Shown here: positions 12,592-37,818 of the stretch, in pieces
How the letters are laid out: every line of letters begins with the position of its first letter
Position numbering within the stretch: the stretch's first letter is position 1
Origin: a virus
IMG/VR virus record: IMGVR_UViG_3300013426_000009
Location: 1-43,785 of that record
Direction: 5' to 3' (one strand)
DNA: 43,785 nucleotides
Notes under the pieces: generated by a model
Database searches by the model: none
Told to the model about the DNA's origin: nothing
Seen by the model: only the letters and a program-made list of their open reading frames with translations
Translations under genes and position numbers: made by a program

Positions 12592-13337
<746 letters not shown>

Positions 13338-13341
<4 letters not shown>

Positions 13342-13628
13342 CTCTTCCACTCCTTCACGGCGCGAAGCGATGCAGATGCCTCGTCCGTACAAGGGATAAC
13401 CTGAATCGCCCCCAATACGGTCATTTCCGGCACGGTCACGGTAAAGCGGCAGTTTCCCGGAGCTTTTGTGCCGTCTTGCGCCAGCTGCTCCACAGCACAC
13501 GCACCATCCCAGCTCCACAGCTTACGAGCCTCGGTCATGGTGACCTCGGAACCGTTGCGCTCCTTGATCTTACCAAAGAAAACGCCTGCGCGGTCACAGC
13601 GAACGATGTAGTCCTGATTGGTGTTCAT
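13338..13628 (-). CDS. Hypothetical conserved phage protein (96 aa)
   Basis: RBS AGGAGGAATTTTATC precedes ATG 13628. The pattern ...VRCDRAGVFFGKI...ARKLWSWDGACAVEQLAQDG... recurs in many phage early regions, from memory. Confidence 0.75.
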
Positions 13629-13651: not shown

Positions 13652-13837
13652 TTAAAACTTAAAGCTCTCTCTGAGCTTTTTCCCGTTGATCTGCGCCTCC
13701 GCCGTAAAGTAGCGGTGCGCCTCGTTGATGTAGACGACCTTGCCATGTGCAGTCGTCTCTTTCGTGGTCACGCTCATAATGCCGTTGCTGCCCTCAAACG
13801 CGGCAGGCTTCCAGCTAAATGGTTCGCCGATGTACAT
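13652..13837 (-). CDS. Hypothetical protein (61 aa)
   Basis: The ORF track gives 13652..13927. I moved the start to ATG 13837, preceded by GGGGAGAATTGAGC, just after the methylase stop. Confidence 0.6.
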   Translation of the reverse strand: MYIGEPFSWKPAAFEGSNGIMSVTTKETTAHGKVVYINEAHRYFTAEAQINGKKLRESFKF

Positions 13838-13839
13838 GC

Positions 13840-15312
13840 TCAATTCTCCCCAAATCTCAATTTTGTCACGGCAATAGGAAACTCTTCGATCTCGCTCGCC
13901 CAGCGCGCCGTGCCTTTTCCGTTGCACCGCTCGAACACCAGCGGAAAGCCGCCGATGCCGTCAAACAGGCTCCCCATCGTAACAGGACGCAAATATTGCG
14001 CGCTGATCCGCTTTGCCAGAAATGACCAGAACGGCAGCGCGATCGAGTTGCCGCAGGCCTTATAGCGCGGGCTATCCGCGTCCTTATGGAGTTTCCCCTT
14101 GCTGTCGCGCCACTCGCCGATGTCCGTCCACCCGTCCGGATAGCCTTGCAGCCGCTCGCATTCCAGCGGCGTGAGACGGCGCACGATCGTCCCCGTACGG
14201 ACGGTATTTTGCAGATTCAGGCTCTGCCCGCCGCTCTCTTTGGCTTGCAATGCCCCGTTGATCTCGCCGCCCTCGGTGAAATTACGGCAGTCAACGCTGC
14301 TGACCACTAAATCGGTGCTGTCCTTGTAGTCGCGCTGCTTGCAGCTGCTCGCGGTATCGCCCTCGCGGTAATCGCCGAAGCCCTGCATCTGATAGCAGAC
14401 CGCTGGAACCTCGCCGAAGGTGTGCAGCGCAGGACACGGCTTGTCCGGTCCGACGGTGCTGCGGTTGTCCGGTGATGTGATCTGCGCCCGGTCAAACGCC
14501 AAAACTGACGGACATTGATTCAGCCCGCTTGATACCGCGCCCAGCGTCGGCGCGCATTCCTCGGCATAGCCGATGCCGTTAGCCTTTGCGCCCTGCCCCG
14601 CCTTGAAGGCTGCGCAAAATACTCCGCACGACGCTTGCCCTCTGCCGCTGCCGGCCGAAATGCACATTGCCTTTTCTTTGCTCGTAATGGGGTCTTGCGT
14701 CAGATGAATCGCGACTGCGCTATCAGCGCCCGCTTCAGAATCTCCGGTAGCTTCTTTCCCCGCCGCTCCGCGCGGCGTAGGATACCCAGGCACGCTTTTC
14801 CGCTCAAACGATATTTCTCCTGCGGTGTCTCCTCCAAAATCTGCGACAATCGAGATTCGACGGCGGCGTTGGGGGACTCCCCAGTGTTGCGCGTCATGCA
14901 CTCGCCAAGCCACGCTCCATCGTCCGCCCACGCAGTCGTGGTAGCCCCCCCAGGTCGGCCATCCCTTTTCAGGCACTTCAATATTGGGGGCTTCCGGCTC
15001 GACGATGCGGATGATCTCTTCGAGGACCGCCGCGAAGTCTCGCCCTTTGTTGCTGCTGAATGCGCCTGGTACGTTTTCCCAGACCATATACCGAGGTCTG
15101 ACCATGTCACCTGACCGCCCACCTGCTCGGTCATGCTCTCTCATCTCCTTTACGATGCGAATCTGATCCATGAAAAGCCCGCTGCGTGCGCCCGCAAGCC
15201 CCGCGCGCTTTCCCGCGACGCTCAAGTCCTGACACGGTGAGCCACCCGTGATGACGTCCACCGGCTCGATCTCCGCGCCGTTGATCTTCGTGATATTGCC
15301 GAGGTGTTTCAT
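13840..15312 (-). CDS. DNA cytosine-5 methyltransferase with circularly permuted motif order (490 aa)
   Basis: The N-terminus is MKHLGNITKINGAEIEPVDVITGGSPCQDLSVAGKR (motif IV). Then come WENVPG (VI), QRRRR (VIII), a ~250-aa variable region, RRLTPLECERLQGYPDGWT (IX) and ACGNSIALP (X). Only after these come TMGSLFDGIGGF (I) and ASEIEEF (II), then the stop. Confidence 0.8.
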   Translation of the reverse strand: MKHLGNITKINGAEIEPVDVITGGSPCQDLSVAGKRAGLAGARSGLFMDQIRIVKEMREHDRAGGRSGDMVRPRYMVWENVPGAFSSNKGRDFAAVLEEIIRIVEPEAPNIEVPEKGWPTWGGYHDCVGGRWSVAWRVHDAQHWGVPQRRRRISIVADFGGDTAGEISFERKSVPGYPTPRGAAGKEATGDSEAGADSAVAIHLTQDPITSKEKAMCISAGSGRGQASCGVFCAAFKAGQGAKANGIGYAEECAPTLGAVSSGLNQCPSVLAFDRAQITSPDNRSTVGPDKPCPALHTFGEVPAVCYQMQGFGDYREGDTASSCKQRDYKDSTDLVVSSVDCRNFTEGGEINGALQAKESGGQSLNLQNTVRTGTIVRRLTPLECERLQGYPDGWTDIGEWRDSKGKLHKDADSPRYKACGNSIALPFWSFLAKRISAQYLRPVTMGSLFDGIGGFPLVFERCNGKGTARWASEIEEFPIAVTKLRFGEN

Positions 15313-15410
15313 CTTCTCCCCTCACATTCCCCGAACAGCTCCCTAAACGTCATCCCCGTCAGCTCCTTCGCCGCGCTCTGTGAGATCGGCTGATTCCCAT
15401 AACCGGTCAT
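15309..15410 (-). pseudogene. 33-codon relic of the small HTH gene family (C-terminal fragment only)
   Basis: Encodes MTGYGNQPISQSAAKELTGMTFRELFGECEGRR. The last 16 aa nearly equal the C-terminus of the 16672..16917 product. It has ATGA overlaps with both flanking methylase genes. Confidence 0.55.
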
Positions 15411-15946
15411 TTGCGCTCTCCCAACTTCATAAAGCAGCCCCAAAAGGTCTGGCTTTTCTTACCGCTGTGATGACCGAAAAGCGGCTTCTGCCCGATGGCA
15501 TCCCATACTTTGGCCGCGGGTATCTGTGTCTCCGCCCACTTGAAAATCAGCACACCGTCCGGTTTCAGCACGCGCATGCACTCGCGGAATCCATCGTGCA
15601 GCATCTTCGGCCAGCCCTCGCCGAGCTTCCCGTATTTCTTCCGCATCCATGCGTTTTCTCCAACACGGCGCAAATGTGGCGGGTCAAAGACGATGAGTGC
15701 GAATGTATTATCCGGGAACGGTAAATTCGTAAAATCGCACTGAATATCCGGATGAATGATGCACTTGCGCTCGGAATCGCGGTTGGTGCTTGTCCACACC
15801 GCAGAACACTCCTCGTCGCGGACGTCGCAATAGACCACGGCCGGGTGTTGCTTATTAAACCAGATCGTCCGAGATCCGCATGTTACGTCAAGAATTTTCT
15901 TCGCCCCGTTCCCGCCCATGATCTGGCTCGCCTGAATGCTATTCAT
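15407..15946 (-). CDS. SAM-dependent DNA methyltransferase, amino-MTase type with DPPH motif (179 aa)
   Basis: The ORF track gives 15407..15964. I moved the start to ATG 15946, preceded by GGAGGAGGTG. ILDVTCGS (motif I) precedes VFDPPH (motif IV). Confidence 0.7.
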   Translation of the reverse strand: MNSIQASQIMGGNGAKKILDVTCGSRTIWFNKQHPAVVYCDVRDEECSAVWTSTNRDSERKCIIHPDIQCDFTNLPFPDNTFALIVFDPPHLRRVGENAWMRKKYGKLGEGWPKMLHDGFRECMRVLKPDGVLIFKWAETQIPAAKVWDAIGQKPLFGHHSGKKSQTFWGCFMKLGERK

Positions 15947-16003
15947 CGCGCACCTCCTCCACACAACACCACTTCGGGCGGATGCTGATTAAAACTGCTT
16001 TGC

Positions 16004-16675
16004 TCATGCGGTTCCCTCCAATCCGCCCCATTGCTCCGCCATAGCTTTGGCGATGCCGGGGAAAGTCTTCGCGCGGTTTTTTGCGCGGTCCGTAGTAAAC
16101 ATACCTCTGTGCTGAATCCCGTGCTTATGGCTATAGCTTCCGCTGGGGCACCATGTGGCAACTGGCTCAACAACATTTGTTGGGACTAGCGGTGGAAGGT
16201 TCTTCAGCCACAAGCATGTCTTTTTGGTGTACGGGTGTCCAAATTGAAACGGCTGGATAATTTGCGAGTATTCCGGCATTACAAAGACCTTACTCGGCAC
16301 AGGATTTTCGACCGCCACAAGCGGAATATCCGACCGCCAAAATTCCATGAAGAAATCGCGCGCTTTTATTCCAAGCATTACTCTTTCCGCCTGTAGATGG
16401 TGATCTTTCCATAAATGTCGCGCCCCAGCATTGCTGAGGTAAGTGCATGGCGGGTGTGCGATCAGCAAATCCCAATCAACAATATGCGTTTCTCCGTCCA
16501 TCGTGGTGATAACTCCAATCGGCCTATTGACGACCTCCACAGCGTCACCGAGGATATGCCACTCAGGATGTCCGCCAGACGGCTCTTGAATGTCACAGGA
16601 ATAAGCCTCATGTCCCAATGCGCGGAACGCCTTGCAGACTTCCTGCGATTCCTCGCAGGCAACTAATACTTTCAT
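16004..16675 (-). CDS. Small C5-methyltransferase-like protein lacking a target-recognition domain (223 aa)
   Basis: The ORF track gives 16004..16690. I moved the start to ATG 16675, which overlaps the upstream stop as ATGA. LIAHPPCTYLSNAG looks like a motif IV PC and VAVENPV like motif VI. There is no FxGxG loop; the N-terminus is MKVLVACEESQ. Confidence 0.6.
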   Translation of the reverse strand: MKVLVACEESQEVCKAFRALGHEAYSCDIQEPSGGHPEWHILGDAVEVVNRPIGVITTMDGETHIVDWDLLIAHPPCTYLSNAGARHLWKDHHLQAERVMLGIKARDFFMEFWRSDIPLVAVENPVPSKVFVMPEYSQIIQPFQFGHPYTKKTCLWLKNLPPLVPTNVVEPVATWCPSGSYSHKHGIQHRGMFTTDRAKNRAKTFPGIAKAMAEQWGGLEGTA

Positions 16676-16917
16676 CTTCTCCCCTCGCATTCTCCGAACA
16701 TCTCACGGAACGTCATCCCCGTCAAATCTTCCAGTGCCAACAGCAGCCGCACCGTCGTATCCCTGTCGCCGCGCGTCCACGCTGACACCGTAAACTGAGA
16801 CGTGCCGAGCGATTGCGCCAACGTGGTCTGGTTGTAATTCTCTGCCTCAAGGCTCTCCTTGAGCGCCGGATAAACGCAGAACTCAAACGGCGTTTTCGGT
16901 CTCATGATCCTACTCAT
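16672..16917 (-). CDS. Small HTH protein, paralogue A (81 aa)
   Basis: ...NQTTLAQSLGTSQFTVSAWTRGDRD...LTGMTFREMFGECEGRR. It is translationally coupled by ATGA to the downstream methylase-like gene. Confidence 0.75.
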   Translation of the reverse strand: MSRIMRPKTPFEFCVYPALKESLEAENYNQTTLAQSLGTSQFTVSAWTRGDRDTTVRLLLALEDLTGMTFREMFGECEGRR

Positions 16918-17141
16918 ACGCGCACCTCCCCGAAAGCCTCTTCAAACGTCAGCCCCGTCACCGCAAGGATCGCCTTGATGACGCCGATGCTGAATTCGTT
17001 CTTGCCCGTGATCCAGCGCCACGTGCAAAGCGGCGATACGCCGAGCTTTTTGCTCAACTCCGGCGGCGTCATCCCCGATGCCTGCAAAGCATCCTTGAGC
17101 TGCGGATATACGACCGTCTTAAATGCTACCGGCTTCATCAT
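16914..17141 (-). CDS. Small HTH protein, paralogue B (75 aa)
   Basis: The ORF track gives 16914..17231. I moved the start to ATG 17141, which overlaps the upstream stop as ATGA. MMKPVAFKTVVYPQLKDALQASGMTPPELSKKLGVSPLCTWRWITG...LTFEEAFGE has the same architecture as paralogue A. Confidence 0.7.
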   Translation of the reverse strand: MMKPVAFKTVVYPQLKDALQASGMTPPELSKKLGVSPLCTWRWITGKNEFSIGVIKAILAVTGLTFEEAFGEVRV

Positions 17142-29175: not shown

Positions 29176-32100
29176 TCACGCTGCTTTCTTTCGCATGATC
29201 GCAAGCTGCTCATCCACCCGCGCGCGGTTCCAGTGGCGGATGCTCTTCGGCACGTTCAGATATTCGTACATCGCCGTGCGCTGCTGCTCGTTGAGGCCCG
29301 AGCGGAACAGCATTTCCATGATCTGTAAGCCCTTGCTCAAGTCAATGGTCTCGCCGTCCTTGTCTTTCAGGCTCTCGCACTCGCTCGCCGCCGCCTTGCA
29401 GGCCGCGAACACGCCCGGGTCGATGCGGTACTGCTTCTGTGCCTCCTGCGCGTTCTGGATCCATTTCGTCGTGATCTCATACTGTCCGCCGGAGTTTTCT
29501 TTCAGCGCCATCGCCTCGGCGTAGCTCTCGACGTAGCCGAGCGCCTTGTCCTTGCCCTCGTCAGAAAGGCGGGAGAACGCGCCGCTGCCCGTCGCCTTGT
29601 CGGCCTGCGTGCGGTAGGTCTCGCCCTTCTGCGTCTCGTACTTGCTGTACGCGCTCGCGTTCAGGTCTGCCGCGCTGAATTTCTCCTCGTCCTCGCCGCT
29701 GTCGTAGGCGTACTTCCCCCGGATGCCCAGCAGATCAAGCGACTTCTGCGGAAGCGAATAGTTTTCTTTGCTCTCGGTTTTCTTCTTGTAGCGGGTTTTA
29801 AGGCTGCTTTGGATGCTCTCGCCGTCAAGGCCCATCTGCTCCATCAGGTCGCGGCGGATGTGCTCATAGGTCGTGTAATCGCCCTGTTCCAGCGCATCGT
29901 AGAGGATGGAGATAAACCGGCTCTTGTTGCCGCTGTTGGCAAGGTTATAGCTGAACTTCTCCACCTCGTACTGGAAGCCGAGACTGCCGCTCGCCTGCGC
30001 GATGGTCCGGATCGTTGCCATCACGTCGCGCTTGATGTTAGACACCGGCAGTCCAAAGACCTTACTCGCTTGGGCAAGCAGTGTGAGCGTCGCTTCCTTG
30101 TTGGTCTGTCTCCCGTCCCCTCCAATACTTTTGATGAAGACACTTGCAGCACTGAGGAGCCCTGCAATGCTCTCCATATCCGGGCGGGACACGTCATAGC
30201 CCTGCATGATTGACAGCGTATCCTTGACAACCGGAATTTTCGTTAAGGGGTTCAGGTTGCTGCCGACGTTGCCGTTCAGTACGATATTCGAGATCAGCTC
30301 TGTTGCGCTTTCTTCATCGCCCTCTACTCCTGTAAACGCGGTAAAGAATTTCTCCCAGTAGTCCTTATCGCGGTCATCGTCGCGAAGCGCATCAACGACG
30401 CTCTGTGCCAGCGCATTCACAACGTCCGTAACGACAAGCGCCGTCGCTGCGCGTCCGAGCGACTTTAATGCCTTGCTGCGCTTCGTCGGGTTCTCCTCGT
30501 AGCGGAACGCGTCGTAGCTGCGCATCAGCACGTTCAGCGTCATAATTGGTTCGCCCATGAAGGCCGTTGCCTGTTGAGAGAAATCTCCCTTGCCGCGCAT
30601 GATGTTACTGCGCTGCAAGATGCCGTCAACGACCTGCGTCTGGTCGATCATGTCGGAGAACACGTCGTTGACCGCGCTGTAAAATTCATTGCTGCCCGCG
30701 CGGACATCGGGCTTTTCGCGCTTCACCTGCCATTCGCAGGCGTTCCACAGCTTCCCCCACGTCACAGCGTCCGCTTTGCCAGCCGCCGCACCTGCGAGGT
30801 CATTCAGCTTGTTCGTCACGCCCTCCTTGCCGTAAAAGCGCTCTTTCAGCGTGTACGGCGACGAGATATCGAAGCTGCCGACGTCCTTGCGCATTGCGAT
30901 AGGCGAATGCTCAAGCGCTTTCTCCCAGCCGCTGCCCTTCGTCACGCCGCCGGTCATGCCCTTTGCCATGTCCTTCGGGTCGAGCACCGCCGCCGCACGG
31001 AAGAATGCCGTCGGCTGCTGGATGACGACGCGGATGTTCGCACCGACCGCTGCGCCCTTGAATTTACCGGTGTTTTTTGTCATGAAATCGCGGAACGGTT
31101 CAAAGTCTTTGACGCCGATACCGTTCTGAATGTCGCCCATCAGCTTTGTCCAGTACTGCTGTGCGCCCTTGCCGCCCTTTTCGTCGAGCAGGCCCTTGAC
31201 GCTCACGCCGGTTTTGTTGCCCGCGTCATTGCGGTACTGGAAGTTGAAGAAGCGGTTTGCATCCTCCATCGGCGCGAGCCATGCCGCGTAGTTGATCATA
31301 TCGGACGCGTGATCGGCAAACGTATCGAACACGCTGCGCAGCTCCACGGCGTTGTTCGCGTTCGGCGTCACCTGCTGTGCCATGCCGATGTTCTTGATGG
31401 AGCGCACATTGCCGCTGTCCTCTTCCTGCGTACTGTGCAGGCCCTCCGCCGCCGACCTGATGGGCCAGTAGTTTTTCTCGGTGAATTTGCGGTAGCCGTA
31501 GGCCTGCATGCTGGCATCGTTGCCGTACTTGGCAAGCGTCGTCGCGGTAAGCTCCTGCAAGCCGTCCGCCACGCGCTTCTGCTCGTCCGTCAGCTTGCCC
31601 GTGATGCGCTCGATGTCGCCCTCGGTCAAAAAGACCTGCCGCGTGCCGCGCTGCACCTTCGTCTTGCCGGTCTCCGCGCTCTTGATCTCCGGCTGAATGA
31701 CGCCGCCGCCGAGCAGATGTCCGAGCGCCTGCTTGCGCTTGCTCAAAAGGTACAGCTCCATGATCTGCGGCGTCGTCAGCGTCAGCTTGCCGCCGTTGGC
31801 AACGGTGATATCGTGCGTCTCCGCCTCCCATTTGCCGATGGCGCTGCCGCGTGCGTCGCGCAGCGCACCTTTCAGGTCGCCGTGGATGGCCTTGCCCGCA
31901 ACGTCCTTGAAGCCCGCCTCGCCCAGCTCGTCGCCAAGCACCTTCTGCGTCTTCTCGGCGATGTCTCGCGCCATGACCTCCTGCGAATCCTGCGCGTTGC
32001 GCAGCATCCGGTAGATGCTCTTGCCCGTCTCGCCGTAGTGCGCGAAGAACGTGTACGGCGTTTCCAGACTGATCGTCATATTGCCGCCGAGCTTCTGCCG

Positions 32101-35100
32101 CCGCGTGCTCACGTCGGTCTTGAAGCTGTCCGCCATCTGCTTTGTGGTCTCAAATTTGCTCTTGGAGAGCACCTTGCCAGCCGTCGAGACGGAGTGCTCC
32201 ACCGCACGGATGGTCTTCCACATCGTCCCGAGCTCTTCCCTCGTCAGCTCAGAGAGCCGCTTGTCCTCCATGCCGATGACCTGCTCAAGCAGGCCGTCCG
32301 AGCCATCAGTCCCAAGCAACGATGGGTCAACGACCATGTCGCCGCCCTCGTTGTCCTCCAAGATGGACTGATACTGCTTCTGCAATGCGCGGAACGCCTC
32401 GGTGCGCTTTGTCGGCGTGCCGCTGCCGTCATAGACACGCTTGCCGCTCTCATCCACGGTGTAGGCGCTCTCCTGATTGATGCTGTTCAGCACCGCCGCC
32501 ACCGCCGAACGCATATTCTCGGGGATGTGCTTCGTGTCCGTCGGGCGCAGCAGCTTCTTCGACAGGTCTTTCGCGTGCCGCGTGATCTTCGCGCGCAGCT
32601 CGCGGCGCTTCTGACCCTCGCGGCGCGTTGCGTCCTTTTCGCGGTAACGGTCTTTCAGCGCATCCAGCTTCTCCGCCTGCTGCGTGCGGGCTTTCTGCAA
32701 AGCCTCCTGCGTGTGCCGCAGCCTCGCCGTCTGCCGTTCGAGTTTCTTTTCCCCTGCGAGCTTTGCGTCCGCTGCGGCCTTGCGGCCCGCCGCCTTTGCC
32801 GCGACCAGCTTTTCCGCCTGCACGTCGGCGAAGGTCTTCTTCGCCTGCGGCAGGTCGAAGAACCGCTCCATGATGTCGTTGGAAATGGCGCTGACCGCCT
32901 GACCCATATAGCCCTCAAACGGGTTATATTCGCCCACGTTGTATAGCTCGTTCGCCACCTCGGCAATGCGGCTGATCTGGTCGCTCACGTTGTTCTCGCG
33001 CGTCTCGCTGAAAAACTCGGGGTAGCTCTCCGCCAGCTCGGAATACACCTGATCGACGTTCGTGCGCTCGCCCCTGCCAAGATTTACCTTGCCGAAAAGC
33101 CCTCGGCGGAAGTCGGCATAGTCCGTGATGCCCGCCGCATCCTCGGCAGAGAGTGTGATCTTCGTATCCTTGAGGAATTTGCGCAGCTCGCTGTACTCGC
33201 GGTATACCTCGTCGTCCTTTGCAATGGCGCTTTCGGCGATGCGCTCGGCAATGGAATCTGCGCGGCTTCTCGCCTCGGTATAGGTGAGTTCGCCGGTCTC
33301 GTCGCCGCCGCGCGCGATGTAGTCGTACAGGCTCGCAAGGTCGCCAGCGATCTCGCTGCTGTCGATCTCCGCGCTGTAATCCTTCACGAGCCTCTTTGCC
33401 GCCTGCTGGACGCTCCTGCTGTCGGTGCGCACGCCGTCTGAGCGGCGCGTCTGCCCCTTCCAGTAGTCCACGCGCTGGCGCAAGGTCTCGTTCTCGCGCT
33501 TGAGCGCCGCGAGCTCCTGCGCATTCTCCGTGCCCTTGAGGGAAAGAAACTGCGCAAGGCTCGATACCTGCGGCGTCGTTCCGTCTTCAAAATAGGCTTT
33601 GATATCGGCAAGCACCTTGTTTGCGTGTGTGCCGCGCGGATATTCCGTGCTCGATACCGTCTGCCCGTCAGGCGTATCAAGGTCAAGGATGACCTCGCCG
33701 CGATTGTGGCTGATGAAGTCGGAAAGGGAATCGAGTTGGTTCTTTGTCGGCATGACCGAAAGGTTGATACCGCCGCTTTCCGGCGAAATGCGGATATTGC
33801 CCTCGCTCATAAACTGGACCATGCTGCCGCTGTAATCGCTGCCGCCGTAGTCATCGCCAAGAGCGTCGCGAATATCTCGATGGTCGACCGTGCGATATCC
33901 GCCGGGGCCACCTTCGTGCCTGCCGGAGAAGTCGAGCTTTTTGCCGTTCGTCAGGATGTAGCCGGTCTCCGACCACTTATAGGTGTGCCCGAAATACTCG
34001 TCCGCGTCCTTGCGGTGCTGCTTCTTCTCTTCGTCGGTGTACTCTTTCAGCGAATAGCGCTTCTTGACATTCTCGCCATTTTGGGGTATACTACTTTTAG
34101 AGACGGATGCAGTGTTTCTGTTGGTTCCCGGTGACGGGTTCTCAGCTTTCACTGCATCGGTCTCTTTTTCTACGAAAGAGGTCGGCTGCAGGTTCAAAAT
34201 GTCGTACAGCAACATACTTCCGCTTTCTCGTGTGCCTACCACCACTTCCGCTGTGTAGTCATTCCCGCCCACACGCAGCAACACATTGCCTCTTGCGAAG
34301 TCTGCAATCTTGTCCTTGCGTGGATGGTTCAGCCCTTCGTTCACCCAGTTCGTCGTCGCGTGCAGAATTTCATCGGCATTGTTCGTGGCGCGGAGTTTGT
34401 CTTCCCGTAGCTGCGGGTCGTTATTGTAGAGCCACTGCATATACCGCGAGAATGTCATCTCTTGACGGCTCTGATAGTCAATATTGATCTCGTTGTTCCC
34501 CACGGTGATGCCGCTGGGGAATTTATTTTTCAAATTCGCTTTGACCGTCGACACCCAATCTTTCTGTGGGATGCCATCGAGAATATCTTCGTCGACTTCG
34601 ACAAAGGACTTGTTGTCCGTGGTTTTTTCAATGCTGTAGCTCTTTCCGCCGTCCGCGAACACCGTGTCCTCGTCGCCGATGTTCGGCTTGCGGCCCATGC
34701 GCTCGTCCGCCGTCAGGCCGCGCCGCGCCGCAGCGTCCCGCGCCTCGATCTCGCCCGCCGTATTATGGTAGAGATCATAAGCGTTCATCTCTTCGCCGCG
34801 GTCGCTGAGCCATTCGAATTCTGCCATATCAAGCTGCGACCACAAATCAGCGTACTCGCTGTCGTACAGCTCGTCGACGACAGCCTCCGCCGCATCGTAG
34901 TCACCGTCCAGCCTGGCTCGGTTGATCCTGCGCACCTTGTCCTTGAATTCTTCCGGCGCGCTGTCGAAGATGCGATGATATTCTTTCCTTGCACGCTCAA
35001 TGCGTCCGTCGTTCTTCCGGCGCGAATAGCCGCCTTGTATCATCTCGTCCCAGTATACAGGGCTTGTCCCTCTCGCGAATCCCTCCCGCTCCTGAATAGC

Positions 35101-37818
35101 GTGCTGAATCTCATGGATGAGAGTGCCTTTCAATTTCTCTGGTTCCAGTTTTAGCCCCGTTCTTAAAACGATCTCATTTTCTTCGGGGTGATAGCTTCCT
35201 TCTTTGTTCCCTGTGTTGGCCTCGAAACGCACTTTCATATCTCTCAGTGCCGGATACGCTTCAAACAGTTTGTCGTGCCTTACGATCTCGTCTAAATAGA
35301 GGGGTGACTTTCTAACGCCCTTGAGATTTTTGTCGAGAATCTGTAGCTCATTCAAATCTTCCGCAGTGGCAGTGTCGTGTAAATAAGCCTTTTCAAAAAG
35401 CTCGTTGTAGCGCTTTGCATCGGGGTTTCTGAGAAAATTCCATTTAGTGTCGGTTTCTGTGCCGCTGTCGTCGATCTCCCAGCGCCACTTCCCATCTGCG
35501 CCGCGGAACCAGCCCGTTTTCTGCCGGATGGTCTCGGCATCAGCACCGCTTTCCTCCATCTCTTTTGCCGTATTAAGCGCTTCTTTGTCCGCATTCTTTG
35601 CATTTTCTCCTGCAAACATAAAGCGCTTCTTGCCGCCCTCTGTGGCGGCATTTTTGCTGCTCTTCGCCGCCGCCTCGAATGCCTGCTGCAAAAGCCCTTC
35701 CGCCGTCTGCGCCTGCTTCTTGGCCTTGCCGGTCAGCTTGCCCACGATCTCGCGGATAGCGTCGCGCAGCTTTTCAAGCAGCGTCCGGTCTTCGCTGTGC
35801 CTGCGGATAAACTCATTCAGCACGTCCGTGTTGGCGATCATCTCGCCCGCGTAGTTGGCTGCGGCCTCGTCCAGCGCTTCATCCATGCTGGTCTCAACGC
35901 CCATGCGGTTGTACTGCTCGTGCAGGATGTTCGCCGCCTCGGCGACGTCGGGGTCTTCCATGATGGCATTGCGGAACGCCGTGTACTGCTCGGGCGCGAG
36001 CTCCTGCACGCGGTGCGTCCACTCATGGCCGACGACCTGCATCACGGGGTCCTGCGCGTCCTTTGCAATGCGGATTTCGTTCCCCTCGATGACGCCGTTG
36101 GCCTTGCCTCCCATCACTTCATCCGCCATACGCACGCGCACGCCGAGCGCCTTTGCAACGGTGTTGATCTCATCCGCCGTCGCGTTATCCATGCTGCGCG
36201 AAACGTAGTCATCATAGACAAGGCCGCTGCTGCCGTCGCTTTCCTGCGCGAAGGTCTTCTTGCGCGCCTCGGCCTTCGCGTCGTTCTGCCCTGCGGCATA
36301 GCCCGCGTAGGCCGTCTCATTCGTCGGGTTCGGATTCGCTTTGCCTTCCACGCCCGCATTGTAGGCGGGAATAAAGTCCTTCACGTGCTCTGCCGTGTCC
36401 TTGCCCTCCTGATACGAGCCGCGGATCGCCTTGCGCCCGCTCTCGCCGATCATGCTGTCGTAGCGCGCAAAAAGCCTGTCGGCAATGCCGTTCACGACGT
36501 CCGCGTCGCTGCGCGTCTCCGTCTTCGTGTTCGGCAGCTCGGTACGGCTGTCATAATAGCGCCCGCCGCGGTTGCCGATGGCTTCCACACCGCCGCCAAG
36601 CCCGCCGAGAATGCCGCCGACGAGAAAGTCGTTCAGAATTTCCGATGCTTCCAGCTCGCTGTAGCTCCCGCCGAGCGTCTTGCCGTTATAGATCATCTGC
36701 AAGGCAGGCTGAATGAGGTCTTCGATGGCTTCCTCGCCGCCCTCTTCCAGAAACGACAGCGCGATCTTGCCCGCCGCGCTGCTGTTAAGCCCCTGCATCG
36801 TCCGCTCGATGACGTCGTCTAAAAAGCCCTTGCCGAACATCTTCTTGAACGGAGCCGCCGCGTTGCCGATCTTCTCGGTCGCCACGCTCAGCGCGCCGCT
36901 CGCAAAGCCATAGTTGACCTGCTGCTCGTGTGTTGCGCCCTGTCTGCGTGCCTCCTGAGCGCTTCCTCCCATGCTGCGAACGAACATCGCAGGGAGCGCG
37001 CTGCCGCCCGTAGCGAGGCCGAGAACGGCGTCCGCGCCCATCTGTGCGCCCGCAACGCCCACGTCGACCGCGAGCTGCCCGACCTTGCCGAGGCCGCTTT
37101 TCGCCTTGTTGATATCTCTTGTGCCGCTGTCGGCCAGCCTGTCAGCGGTCTTATAGATCGCGCCCGCCGTGCGCTCGACCTCGCCGCCGATGCCGTATGC
37201 CTGCTGATACGCCGCCTTGCGTGCTTCCAGATTGGTGATGACGGTGCGCGCCGTTTCGCGTTCGCTTTCCGTGCTTTCGGGGTCGTTCAGCACTTCGCGC
37301 TGCGCCTTGATGTCCTGATCCCACAGCGCGATTTCTTTCTCGGCCTCATCGCGGCGCTGTAAGCCGCTTCCGGTCTGTGCCATGCCCGCCACATTGACAA
37401 GGCCCGCGCCGTAGGTCTTCGCCGCGCCTTTTGCCGCGTTCCCGACGCGCTGCGCGACCGTCGGCGTCTTCACGTCCTGCACGTGCTTCTGAAAGGCGCT
37501 CTCGCTCTGGTAGTTTTTCGCCTCTTTCTGCTGCAAGGCACCCTTGCCAAGATTTTGCGCAAGCGCACTCTGGTTCTTCGGCGTCACGACATTCTGCTGC
37601 GTCGTCGGCTGCTGACGGAACACCGGCGAAGTCGCTTTTACTCTCTCCTTCATTCTTGACGTGCTGGGCGTATTTAGTTTGTCCGCCTCATCTGCGCGTT
37701 CAACAAACTGTGCATGTGCATCTTTTCGGGCTGCCCAAGAGGCCGCACCGTCAAACGATGCGGCCCTCTCCTTTTTGCGTGCCGCCCATGCGGACGCACC
37801 GTCAAAATTCCCCGACAT
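29176..37818 (-). CDS. Giant polyvalent virion/ejection-type protein (2,880 aa) with two zincin-like HExxHxxQE modules
   Basis: RBS AAGGAGGACAAGATAT precedes ATG 37818. There is a Gly-zipper hydrophobic region at about aa 240-415. GHEWTHRVQE is encoded at nt 36013-36027 and LIHEIQHAIQEREGF at nt 35101-35115. Further polyvalent-protein-like modules, long coiled coils and a ~1,000-aa C-terminal region follow. Confidence 0.85.
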   Translation of the reverse strand: MSGNFDGASAWAARKKERAASFDGAASWAARKDAHAQFVERADEADKLNTPSTSRMKERVKATSPVFRQQPTTQQNVVTPKNQSALAQNLGKGALQQKEAKNYQSESAFQKHVQDVKTPTVAQRVGNAAKGAAKTYGAGLVNVAGMAQTGSGLQRRDEAEKEIALWDQDIKAQREVLNDPESTESERETARTVITNLEARKAAYQQAYGIGGEVERTAGAIYKTADRLADSGTRDINKAKSGLGKVGQLAVDVGVAGAQMGADAVLGLATGGSALPAMFVRSMGGSAQEARRQGATHEQQVNYGFASGALSVATEKIGNAAAPFKKMFGKGFLDDVIERTMQGLNSSAAGKIALSFLEEGGEEAIEDLIQPALQMIYNGKTLGGSYSELEASEILNDFLVGGILGGLGGGVEAIGNRGGRYYDSRTELPNTKTETRSDADVVNGIADRLFARYDSMIGESGRKAIRGSYQEGKDTAEHVKDFIPAYNAGVEGKANPNPTNETAYAGYAAGQNDAKAEARKKTFAQESDGSSGLVYDDYVSRSMDNATADEINTVAKALGVRVRMADEVMGGKANGVIEGNEIRIAKDAQDPVMQVVGHEWTHRVQELAPEQYTAFRNAIMEDPDVAEAANILHEQYNRMGVETSMDEALDEAAANYAGEMIANTDVLNEFIRRHSEDRTLLEKLRDAIREIVGKLTGKAKKQAQTAEGLLQQAFEAAAKSSKNAATEGGKKRFMFAGENAKNADKEALNTAKEMEESGADAETIRQKTGWFRGADGKWRWEIDDSGTETDTKWNFLRNPDAKRYNELFEKAYLHDTATAEDLNELQILDKNLKGVRKSPLYLDEIVRHDKLFEAYPALRDMKVRFEANTGNKEGSYHPEENEIVLRTGLKLEPEKLKGTLIHEIQHAIQEREGFARGTSPVYWDEMIQGGYSRRKNDGRIERARKEYHRIFDSAPEEFKDKVRRINRARLDGDYDAAEAVVDELYDSEYADLWSQLDMAEFEWLSDRGEEMNAYDLYHNTAGEIEARDAAARRGLTADERMGRKPNIGDEDTVFADGGKSYSIEKTTDNKSFVEVDEDILDGIPQKDWVSTVKANLKNKFPSGITVGNNEINIDYQSRQEMTFSRYMQWLYNNDPQLREDKLRATNNADEILHATTNWVNEGLNHPRKDKIADFARGNVLLRVGGNDYTAEVVVGTRESGSMLLYDILNLQPTSFVEKETDAVKAENPSPGTNRNTASVSKSSIPQNGENVKKRYSLKEYTDEEKKQHRKDADEYFGHTYKWSETGYILTNGKKLDFSGRHEGGPGGYRTVDHRDIRDALGDDYGGSDYSGSMVQFMSEGNIRISPESGGINLSVMPTKNQLDSLSDFISHNRGEVILDLDTPDGQTVSSTEYPRGTHANKVLADIKAYFEDGTTPQVSSLAQFLSLKGTENAQELAALKRENETLRQRVDYWKGQTRRSDGVRTDSRSVQQAAKRLVKDYSAEIDSSEIAGDLASLYDYIARGGDETGELTYTEARSRADSIAERIAESAIAKDDEVYREYSELRKFLKDTKITLSAEDAAGITDYADFRRGLFGKVNLGRGERTNVDQVYSELAESYPEFFSETRENNVSDQISRIAEVANELYNVGEYNPFEGYMGQAVSAISNDIMERFFDLPQAKKTFADVQAEKLVAAKAAGRKAAADAKLAGEKKLERQTARLRHTQEALQKARTQQAEKLDALKDRYREKDATRREGQKRRELRAKITRHAKDLSKKLLRPTDTKHIPENMRSAVAAVLNSINQESAYTVDESGKRVYDGSGTPTKRTEAFRALQKQYQSILEDNEGGDMVVDPSLLGTDGSDGLLEQVIGMEDKRLSELTREELGTMWKTIRAVEHSVSTAGKVLSKSKFETTKQMADSFKTDVSTRRQKLGGNMTISLETPYTFFAHYGETGKSIYRMLRNAQDSQEVMARDIAEKTQKVLGDELGEAGFKDVAGKAIHGDLKGALRDARGSAIGKWEAETHDITVANGGKLTLTTPQIMELYLLSKRKQALGHLLGGGVIQPEIKSAETGKTKVQRGTRQVFLTEGDIERITGKLTDEQKRVADGLQELTATTLAKYGNDASMQAYGYRKFTEKNYWPIRSAAEGLHSTQEEDSGNVRSIKNIGMAQQVTPNANNAVELRSVFDTFADHASDMINYAAWLAPMEDANRFFNFQYRNDAGNKTGVSVKGLLDEKGGKGAQQYWTKLMGDIQNGIGVKDFEPFRDFMTKNTGKFKGAAVGANIRVVIQQPTAFFRAAAVLDPKDMAKGMTGGVTKGSGWEKALEHSPIAMRKDVGSFDISSPYTLKERFYGKEGVTNKLNDLAGAAAGKADAVTWGKLWNACEWQVKREKPDVRAGSNEFYSAVNDVFSDMIDQTQVVDGILQRSNIMRGKGDFSQQATAFMGEPIMTLNVLMRSYDAFRYEENPTKRSKALKSLGRAATALVVTDVVNALAQSVVDALRDDDRDKDYWEKFFTAFTGVEGDEESATELISNIVLNGNVGSNLNPLTKIPVVKDTLSIMQGYDVSRPDMESIAGLLSAASVFIKSIGGDGRQTNKEATLTLLAQASKVFGLPVSNIKRDVMATIRTIAQASGSLGFQYEVEKFSYNLANSGNKSRFISILYDALEQGDYTTYEHIRRDLMEQMGLDGESIQSSLKTRYKKKTESKENYSLPQKSLDLLGIRGKYAYDSGEDEEKFSAADLNASAYSKYETQKGETYRTQADKATGSGAFSRLSDEGKDKALGYVESYAEAMALKENSGGQYEITTKWIQNAQEAQKQYRIDPGVFAACKAAASECESLKDKDGETIDLSKGLQIMEMLFRSGLNEQQRTAMYEYLNVPKSIRHWNRARVDEQLAIMRKKAA

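Follow-up and report, generated by a model that had tools for sequence, protein, structure and literature searches.

The DNA analyzed here, referred to as the window, is the whole 43,785-nucleotide (nt) viral stretch of IMG/VR record IMGVR_UViG_3300013426_000009, and one of its minus-strand open reading frames (ORFs), at 13840-15312, encodes a protein of 490 amino acids (aa) that starts with MKHLGNITKINGAEIEPVDVITGGSPCQDLS and ends with ...VTKLRFGEN-stop. We found that this protein is a clean circular permutation of a C5 DNA methyltransferase (C5-MTase), broken between motifs II and III. Its motifs follow the order III-IV-V-VI-VII-VIII-TRD-IX-X-I-II, where TRD is the variable, target-recognition region (Table 1). 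An earlier note on this DNA had described the permutation. The gene is no isolated case confined to the window phage and belongs to a very large family.

Motif order, family and predicted fold of the permuted enzyme

The PF00145 profile matched the 490-aa protein with 126.4 bits (cut-off 22), spread over four separate stretches, and TIGR00675 (dcm) matched it with 115.4 bits (cut-off 100.65). Using phmmer against the PDB, we found that residues 14-55 of M.HhaI (motifs I-II) correspond to residues 446-489 of the query, residues 58-112 (motifs III-IV) to 4-58, residues 150-170 (motif VIII) to 137-157, and residues 271-318 (motifs IX-X) to 377-436. BLASTP with the enzyme of Streptococcus phage Javan105 aligned its residues 49-495 to query residues 1-445 and its residues 3-48 to query residues 442-489. 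Query residue 1 aligns with Javan105 residue 49 and query residue 489 with residue 48. The C-terminus reads straight on into the protein's own N-terminus, as the earlier note had described, and the cut separates the end of the motif II segment from the V/M-K-H-L-G-D of motif III. All of these matches stood in permuted order and not in the order I to X. When aa 446-490 were put first in silico, the Pfam score rose from 126.4 to 139.8 bits, and residues 3-145 of the de-permuted sequence formed a single contiguous Pfam stretch on profile positions 5-130.

The catalytic motifs of C5-MTases were all present, with P26-C27-Q28 in motif IV, E79-N80-V81 in motif VI and Q148-R149-R150-R152 in motif VIII, and so were the motifs that bind S-adenosylmethionine (AdoMet), with F450-G452-G454-G455 in motif I, E474 in motif II, motif III, and G421-N422 in motif X. 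The earlier note had read both termini and the permutation correctly, and its position for motif I (13948-13965) was right, but the first motif of the chain is III (HLGNITKI) and not IV. The protein departs from the canonical linear order I through X. It also departs from the M.BssHII type of permutation (Type H), since its N-terminus lies at motif III and its TRD is internal, and from the plant DRM type, since motifs III-V are N-terminal and ahead of motif VI. Two-chain enzymes such as M.AquI and M.EcoHK31I are likewise a different case, as the window gene is one open frame. With an N-terminus between motifs II and III, fused native termini and a single chain, the protein has the features of a Type B circular permutant.

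An exhaustive search covered 1.84 billion cluster representatives, and the best 150 of them, each standing for one 50%-identity cluster, were examined. In at least 109, a PCQ lies close to residue 26 and an FxGxGG some 40 residues ahead of the C-terminus; a further 22 share the permuted layout but are truncated at one end or deviate in a motif. Motif I lies ahead of motif IV in 16, comprising 11 with a canonical N-terminal motif I and five that begin with the TRD (P0126 type). The 100%-identity cluster that has the window protein as its representative contains 31 member sequences on six contigs, and an identical locus (L091) occurs in an independently assembled Oscillibacter metagenome-assembled genome. 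Among the matches listed there are at least 120 close relatives, nearly all with 100% query coverage, 62-100% identity and a length of about 470-585 aa. On 80 IMG/VR viral contigs we found genes colinear with query residues 1-489, at identities down to 40%. The order is permuted in 28 of 80 bacterial genome loci, from Oscillibacter, Dysosmobacter, Flemingiibacterium and other Oscillospiraceae plus two isolates, Gemmiger sp. An87 and Intestinibacillus massiliensis; it is canonical in 31 of the 80, from Blautia, Sellimonas, Anaerotruncus, Ruthenibacterium, Lachnospiraceae and Streptococcus. The isolated Faecalibacterium phages Toutatis and Lelie carry a permuted gene with 43% identity.

In an alignment of 40 members with 46-91% identity, the invariant residues include G24, P26, C27 and Q28, E79, N80 and V81, and Q148, R149, R150 and R152, together with R378, R379, T381 and E384 of motif IX and G421, N422 and S423 of motif X. 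The C-terminal unit is conserved in the same way, with S448, L449, F450, G452, G455 and F456 of motif I and S473 and E474 of motif II invariant. Hundreds of diverged relatives share the N-terminus M-K/I-H-L/Y-G-D and the C-terminus PIAVTK.RFGE. The GN of motif X and motif I stand 28 residues apart in 89 of the 117 permuted representatives (standard deviation 1.7), and because this spacing is fixed, the X-to-I junction is a constrained structural connection and not a loose linker. Codon-position entropy was computed over 49 distinct intact loci. In the motif blocks it was 1.2-1.6 at position 3 against 0.04-0.5 at positions 1 and 2, and in those of the C-terminal unit 1.2-1.5 against 0.16-0.5; the motif blocks are therefore under purifying selection. 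Variation in length among the relatives (334-1201 aa) comes mostly from short modules gained or lost in the variable region, and modules with 'TL' and 'GG.NQ/NN.P' recur and are gained and lost among relatives.

The earlier note had argued for one fused polypeptide, and we indeed found no stop codon from motif X to motif I and no Shine-Dalgarno (SD) sequence ahead of M446. Its view of M446 as a retained ancestral initiator did not hold, as at this position 61 of the 117 representatives have Leu, 54 Met and 2 Ile, and 2-9 residues precede it in canonical relatives. Since half of the family has Leu here and no SD sequence is present, M446 is neither a start codon nor a fossil initiator. Separate translation of the I-II unit from M446 is ruled out by the same two facts together with the open frame.

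AlphaFold2, run with the family alignment, predicted aa 377-490 with a predicted local distance difference test score (pLDDT) of 88-95 and aa 1-170 mostly with 86-97, except for the loop at 31-43. A strand-helix-strand-helix is predicted at aa 446-487. The top PDB fold matches of the model were M.HhaI, M.HaeIII and M.MpeI; a C5-carboxymethyltransferase and Dnmt2 followed as weaker matches at ranks 42 and 47.

A nested reading frame, poly-G tracts and alternative readings

Inside the methyltransferase (MTase) gene, in the +1 frame, lies a second ORF, called ORF B (Table 1). It was spotted through gp14 of phage Toutatis and some database proteins that have a different C-terminus after motif VI (...LSQILE..KY.LS.KAC.GIL.RA.RRGK.LP..L..AL), a sequence that the window encodes too, in ORF B. 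A profile built from 120 short database proteins of this kind matched all 91 loci of a first set (80 IMG/VR loci, Toutatis, Javan105, the dmt gene of a Salmonella phage-plasmid, seven loci for two relatives, and the window) and all 80 bacterial genome loci. ORF B was present in 173 of the 173 related loci examined, and in each of the 76 genome loci, out of 80, whose motif VIII was identified, the match was +1 to that motif. In the dmt gene of phage P1 (L171 1225-1713) it is 162 aa long and ends with SLPPLLQMALQSVAKA, and the P1 RefSeq record has no coding sequence (CDS) there. We also found it in mycobacteriophage Omega (L172 937-1410) and in phages of Vibrio, Akkermansia, Roseobacter, Caulobacter, Pseudomonas and a cyanobacterium. 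ORF B spans phages of at least five bacterial phyla, with a length of about 145-165 aa (another copy lies at L003 2219-2716). At most loci of Firmicute type, from Oscillospiraceae phages and related genomes, a TGA inside the K-E-M-R codons is followed 2-6 codons on by an ATG or GTG with AAGGAG 10 nt upstream.

The codon-position entropy changes where the two frames overlap. In frame A, that of the MTase, the entropy of the third position is only 0.6-0.9 over aa 131-170, down from 1.2-1.6, and over aa 171-190 the pattern is inverted (position 1, 0.97-1.32; position 2, 0.48-0.66; position 3, 0.38-0.43). This inversion is the signature of coding in the +1 frame and follows frame B, not A. When frame A of six distant loci was recoded synonymously 300 times, the recoded sequences scored 7-34 bits (maximum 70) against the B profile, compared with 84-153 bits for the native ones. 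These two tests and the conserved translation start show that the ORF B frame itself is under purifying selection. That ORF B merely follows from the G+C content or from the conservation of frame A is ruled out by the recodings, by the codon-position entropy and by its persistence in a Streptococcus phage of low GC as well as in enterobacterial, actinobacterial and other phages.

ORF B has 19 invariant residues, and its core consists of three predicted helices with pLDDT above 90 over residues 41-70. Sequence searches of Pfam, NCBIfam and the PDB gave no relatives, and the fold search of the PDB gave no significant match. In BFVD, the B model matched only a relative of the MTase family with B in frame and an uncharacterized 81-aa mycobacteriophage protein; PHROGs merely labels small fragments 'DNA methyltransferase', and literature searches returned no description of an ORF nested in such MTase genes. 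The N-terminus of 31 of 89 distinct B ORFs reads Q[LVMI][STDE][LIM]F (QLSLF 14 times, QVSLF, QMSLF, QLDLF; for example L049, L128 and L172), which matches the consensus beta-sliding-clamp-binding motif of bacteria, and the window ORF has a degenerate QVTWS at this site (about 15090-15134, minus strand). We regard a clamp-binding motif here as a lead rather than a finding.

A G7 homopolymer lies between motifs VI and VII of the window gene. It is the sole G7/C7 run in the 43.8 kb, with a mean of 4.7 in shuffled sequences. A run of G6-G9 is found just upstream of the B core in 43 of 74 distinct loci, with a background of 0.27 per kb, and 14 of the 74 have a second G-run just downstream of the core; the window has the upstream tract only. 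We classified the reading-frame configuration of these 74 related loci. As in the window, the whole MTase lies in one frame in 61. Motifs III-VI are fused to B in four, for example in Toutatis (G9), while in six B is in frame with TRD-IX-X-I-II and overlaps a separate III-VIII by about 85 codons, giving an AquI-like two-ORF enzyme. One lineage, present in four independent samples, has an extra G and a premature stop, and in two loci the shift occurs at the second G-tract. In relatives, the reading frame switches through +1/-1 length changes at this tract, and every shifted configuration except one has a G-run where the frames meet. In Toutatis (L001 3001-4412, NC_047915) the permuted MTase is annotated as two 'DNA methyltransferase' genes, gp14 and gp15; gp14 is III-VI fused to ORF B after the G9 tract, and VIII-X-I-II lie in another frame. 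Phase variation, transcriptional slippage and hot-spot mutation may each explain the shifts at the G-tracts, and assemblies alone do not decide between them.

It is conceivable, though on balance we doubt it, that the locus is a compact unit coding for several products. In this reading B, with its clamp-binding consensus and its three-helix C-terminal domain, would serve the MTase as partner or adaptor and tether methylation to the replication fork, while slippage at the poly-G tracts, which lie on both sides of the dual-coding segment in many relatives of Oscillospiraceae type, would reversibly join B to one or the other enzyme half or detach it, to give phase-variable or mixed isoforms. If B is expressed, it would be an unrecognized gene in P1, one of the best-studied phages, and a new case of overprinting inside the catalytic core of an enzyme. 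In our view, ORF B and the poly-G frame switching are at least as interesting as the permutation.

For the window gene, we think it very probable that it specifies one polypeptide with an ordinary C5 cytosine methyltransferase fold whose chain starts at motif III, that it is likely used by the phage for self-methylation, and that it probably originated by duplication. From motif III the chain passes through the catalytic motifs IV-VIII, the long modular TRD, motifs IX and X and the short fixed turn LRPVT to motifs I-II, and the C-terminal strand-helix-strand that carries motifs I-II would form the AdoMet pocket and complete the Rossmann-type sheet. Several points weigh against this reading. 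Residue N6 in motif III (15295-15297, minus strand) is Asn, while 95 of the 117 permuted representatives have Asp; the Asp at the equivalent site of M.HhaI contacts the adenine of AdoMet. The TRD (aa 171-376) has pLDDT below 50, and DNA recognition cannot be judged from the model. The Foldseek alignment was confined to the colinear N-terminal part of about 170 columns. As about one-sixth of the related loci are shifted or split, the single-chain form is not the sole form in use, and the ORF B product may be a required partner of the MTase.

The last two points bear on an alternative that we consider improbable, in which the enzyme functions only as a multi-part assembly, with I-II or the TRD-IX-X-I-II half made separately, or with the chain joined by the ORF B product. 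The six loci with overlapping ORFs, the four fusions of III-VI to B and the selection on the nested ORF in every locus agree with it, and there is precedent in M.EcoHK31I, whose beta chain carries motif IX and is read from a different frame within the gene of the alpha chain (PMC2836561), and in M.AquI, which consists of two chains split in the variable region (PMC3404938). Apart from M.EcoHK31I, we found no precedent for a C5-MTase gene that contains a further chain in an alternative frame, but ORF B has no known MTase motif and overlaps motifs VI-VIII, and motif IX here lies in the main frame. The split relatives resemble both enzymes in being naturally split in or near the variable region. 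Against the assembly stand the undivided frame of the window gene and most of the classifiable relatives, M446 with its missing SD sequence and its replacement by Leu in half of the family, the lack of an MTase motif in B, and the full activity of engineered single-chain Type B enzymes without a partner (PMC5944983).

It is very improbable that the fold is kept but the protein is something other than a DNA 5-methylcytosine (5mC) MTase, such as a Dnmt2-like RNA MTase, a hypermodifier of the carboxymethyl type or an inactive DNA-binding protein. The Asn in motif III and the presence of the C5-carboxymethyltransferase and Dnmt2 among the weaker fold matches would fit it, but bacterial DNA C5-MTases gave the best matches in sequence and in fold, all DNA-MTase motifs are intact, including VIII (QRRRR) and IX, and both the large TRD and the adjacent DNA MTases are consistent with modification of DNA. 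An assembly, chimera or annotation artefact or a decaying pseudogene, which the metagenomic source and the frameshifts of some relatives at poly-G tracts might suggest, has a negligible probability and is refuted by the conservation data, namely the identical gene in independent assemblies, the common start, end and 28-residue junction in hundreds of diverged relatives, the same order in isolated phages and cultured bacterial genomes, and the invariant functional residues with codon-position entropy typical of purifying selection.

Table 1. Features of the permuted methyltransferase gene, its surroundings and related loci (window coordinates unless a locus is named)
Feature	Position	Strand	Remarks
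Permuted C5 DNA methyltransferase, complete CDS	13840..15312	-	490 aa; start ATG overlaps stop of upstream small ORF (ATGA)
Motif III	15283..15306	-	aa 3-10, HLGNITKI, new N-terminus; HhaI equivalent 'GDITQV'; N6, with D in at least 90% of relatives
Motif IV	15223..15246	-	aa 23-30, GGSPCQDL, catalytic Cys27; G24, P26, C27, Q28 invariant in 40 relatives
Motif VI	15070..15078	-	aa 79-81, ENV, invariant
Motif VIII	14857..14871	-	aa 148-152, QRRRR; Q148, R149, R150, R152 invariant
Variable/target-recognition region	14185..14802	-	aa 171-376, modular; low AlphaFold2 confidence
Motif IX	14137..14184	-	aa 377-392, VRRLTPLECERLQGYP
Motif X and helix	13993..14058	-	aa 419-440, G421-N422-S423
Fusion junction LRPVT	13978..13992	-	aa 441-445, old C-terminus to old N-terminus
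Motif I	13945..13977	-	aa 446-456, MGSLFDGIGGF; S448, L449, F450, G452, G455, F456 invariant
Motif II	13879..13902	-	aa 471-478, WASEIEEF; S473, E474 invariant
G7 homopolymer	14945..14951	-	codons W121-G122-G123, between VI and VII
G-tract equivalents in related loci	L001, L004-L007, L038, L041, L043, L080-L082, L090		
ORF B, nested in +1 frame	14700..15134	-	144 aa; overlaps MTase aa 60-204 (VI-VIII and linker)
ORF B start codon ATG	15132-15134	-	
ORF B SD sequence AAGGAG	15145-15150	-	
ORF B three-helix core	14703-14921	-	
Second tandem MTase gene	15407-15964	-	Methyltransf_11, phrog_954
Third tandem MTase gene	16004-16690	-	phrog_757, PPC motif, no Pfam match
55-nt direct repeat	15307..15361	.	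89% identical to 16670-16724; 3' end of helix-turn-helix gene and ATGA junction
P0126 loci	L008 1637-3259; L009 1556-3178; L010 132-1754		

Relation to engineered and natural permutants, and probable origin of the permutation

Permutants of M.MpeI and M.SssI were built by Albert, Varga, Zsibrita and Kiss (2018). The most active of them all, comparable to wild type, were those of class B, whose chain begins between motifs II and III (PMC5944983). Two of them, cp62M.MpeI and cp58M.SssI, have the same topology as the window enzyme, with the new N-terminus between II and III and the native termini joined directly. Directed evolution of M.HaeIII (Peisajovich et al. 2006, recounted in PMC5944983) also yielded active permutants, starting between II and IV and selected in vivo. 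These are laboratory constructs, monospecific for CG or GGCC, whereas the window family is natural, ancient, species-rich and phage-borne and has a long modular TRD. In 2018 the Type B topology was said not to occur in natural C5-MTases; when REBASE was searched for natural enzymes in which motif X precedes motif I, 27 came up, all permuted in the variable region like M.BssHII, and the apparent absence of the Type B order in nature puzzled its designers, who proposed a hidden cost in AdoMet affinity (PMC5944983). Woodcock et al. (2020) still cite only 'one alternative permutation' (PMC7544214). The earlier note had called such a break point unfamiliar, and by both papers it was not known among natural enzymes (PMC5944983, PMC7544214). 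Full-text literature searches, with REBASE itself outside the search, returned no account of a Type B C5-MTase from nature. The window family is the natural counterpart of the engineered Type B enzymes, that is, a new natural topology of a known kind.

The Type H enzymes M.BssHII, M.Alw26I, M2.Eco31I, M.Esp3I and M2.BsaI are likewise permuted single-chain bacterial C5-MTases with X before I, but they are broken in the variable region (IX-X-I-VIII), whereas the window enzyme is broken between II and III (III-X-I-II). P0126, a relative in the clade of the window enzyme, is Type-H-like. Plant DRM2 also has a permuted C5-MTase domain with motifs I-II C-terminal, and PDB chains of DRM2 weakly matched the motif IV region of the query. 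In the eukaryotic DRM enzymes, which act as dimers, motifs VI-X are followed by I-V, and the break point differs from that of the window enzyme.

The class beta amino-methyltransferases, defined by the order IV-TRD-I (Woodcock et al. 2020; PMC7544214) and exemplified by M.EcoP15I, CcrM and M.EcoGII, have the same block order as the window enzyme. They make N6-methyladenine or N4-methylcytosine with a motif IV of the DPPY/DPPH type, and many are dimeric, whereas the window enzyme has the PCQ/ENV/QRR motifs of 5mC chemistry and keeps its TRD between VIII and IX. The Type B permutation gives a C5 enzyme an order otherwise typical of class beta, and C5 enzymes now reach the IV-TRD-I arrangement.

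Among canonical enzymes, those of Javan105 and of Anaerotruncus, Ruthenibacterium and Blautia prophages belong to the same subfamily, with similar TRD modules and the nested +1 ORF, but they keep motifs I-II at the N-terminus; the overall identity to Javan105 is 34%. The C5 domain of phage P1 Dmt is a more distant canonical relative. The Bacillus phage C5-MTases SPR and phi3T are multispecific, with several independent TRDs in tandem and one specificity each. The gain and loss of modules in the window family recalls these enzymes.

C5-MTases are the textbook case of a fixed motif order, and nature uses the Type B order widely, in phages of gut Clostridia. Natural pairs of permuted and canonical enzymes, with up to about 60% identity, make the hypothesis of an AdoMet cost testable. 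Annotation by motif order and REBASE-style searches will mis-split or mis-class such genes, and the Toutatis gene already stands as two.

The permutation would have arisen by tandem duplication of a canonical phage gene and in-frame fusion, followed by loss of the first I-II unit and of the last III-X unit. Identity to canonical relatives, namely Clostridia prophage enzymes, reaches about 60% in the best segment. The order TRD-IX-X-I-II-III-...-VIII(-TRD) occurs in five of the 150 representatives (P0126, P0202, P0236, P0264 and P0226). The gene of P0126 (540 aa) is complete, has other genes on either side, was recovered from three independent samples and encodes a protein 66% identical to the window enzyme. 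Enzymes of this type have both the X-to-I junction, with its 28-residue spacing, and an uninterrupted II-to-III junction (...TRFPGMKHLGD...). This layout supports duplication, fusion and truncation, since differently trimmed products of a fused duplicate are expected to look so. The earlier note had proposed duplication with trimming of both ends, and we judge this plausible, because the P0126-type enzymes keep the fusion junction and the native II-to-III junction alike. As they resemble duplication-truncation intermediates, the route itself becomes open to examination.

A different origin seems rather unlikely to us, either fission of the gene into two ORFs that were re-fused in swapped order, or recombination between MTase paralogues at junction repeats. 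Split forms do occur in the family, tandem MTase genes share a 55-nt junction repeat, and the P0126 type is a second permutation topology in the same clade. The observed splits, however, lie in the VI-VIII and variable regions, with none between II and III; the P0126 type looks exactly like a truncated tandem dimer, and laboratory evolution of M.HaeIII took the duplication-truncation route (Peisajovich et al. 2006, recounted in PMC5944983).

Probable role and neighboring genes

The window is phage-like, with small and large terminase subunits, a DnaC-like loader, a Holliday-junction resolvase and helix-turn-helix (HTH) regulators, and the carrier appears to be a phage or prophage of about 43.8 kb of Oscillibacter (Oscillospiraceae). 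Three MTase genes follow one another in the replication/early region (13840-16690, minus strand), and the permuted gene is the last of them. Among the subset of ORFs that was scanned, no restriction endonuclease was detected next to it, and in being phage-borne with no adjacent cognate endonuclease it corresponds to an orphan anti-restriction phage methyltransferase. Its role is most likely self-methylation against host restriction: phage DNA methylated by the permuted enzyme would escape restriction by the host. Because the TRD is modular, the enzyme may have more than one target sequence.

Two of the three tandem MTase genes, the permuted one and that at 16004-16690, are directly preceded by the 55-nt direct repeat. 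The repeat encodes the end of an HTH protein (...TGMTFRE[LM]FGECEGRR-stop) plus the overlapping ATGA start, and a third, weaker copy lies at 16906-16960. The HTH copy at 15309-15443 is a truncated remnant. The repeat looks like a cassette-exchange junction.

At the other end of the gene, the last MTase codons, TTT GGG GAG AAT TGA (13835-13850, minus strand), contain GGGGAG, which gives the downstream gene (phrog_27610) an SD sequence 7 nt ahead of its ATG (13835-13837). The conserved C-terminus ...RFGE(E/N) may be partly explained by this, since its codons supply the SD sequence of the next gene.

Two further ORFs of the window were recorded. At 12592-13518 (minus strand), a 308-aa ORF contains a long low-complexity repeat of Gly, Ser, Asp and Tyr (GSGSGDGYGSGYGSGDGYGDGDGSGYG...), and its C-terminal part is globular, without a confident family. 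At 29176-37818 (minus strand), a single ORF of 2880 aa, very large for a phage genome of 43.8 kb, probably encodes a giant protein of the tail, tape-measure or fibre type.

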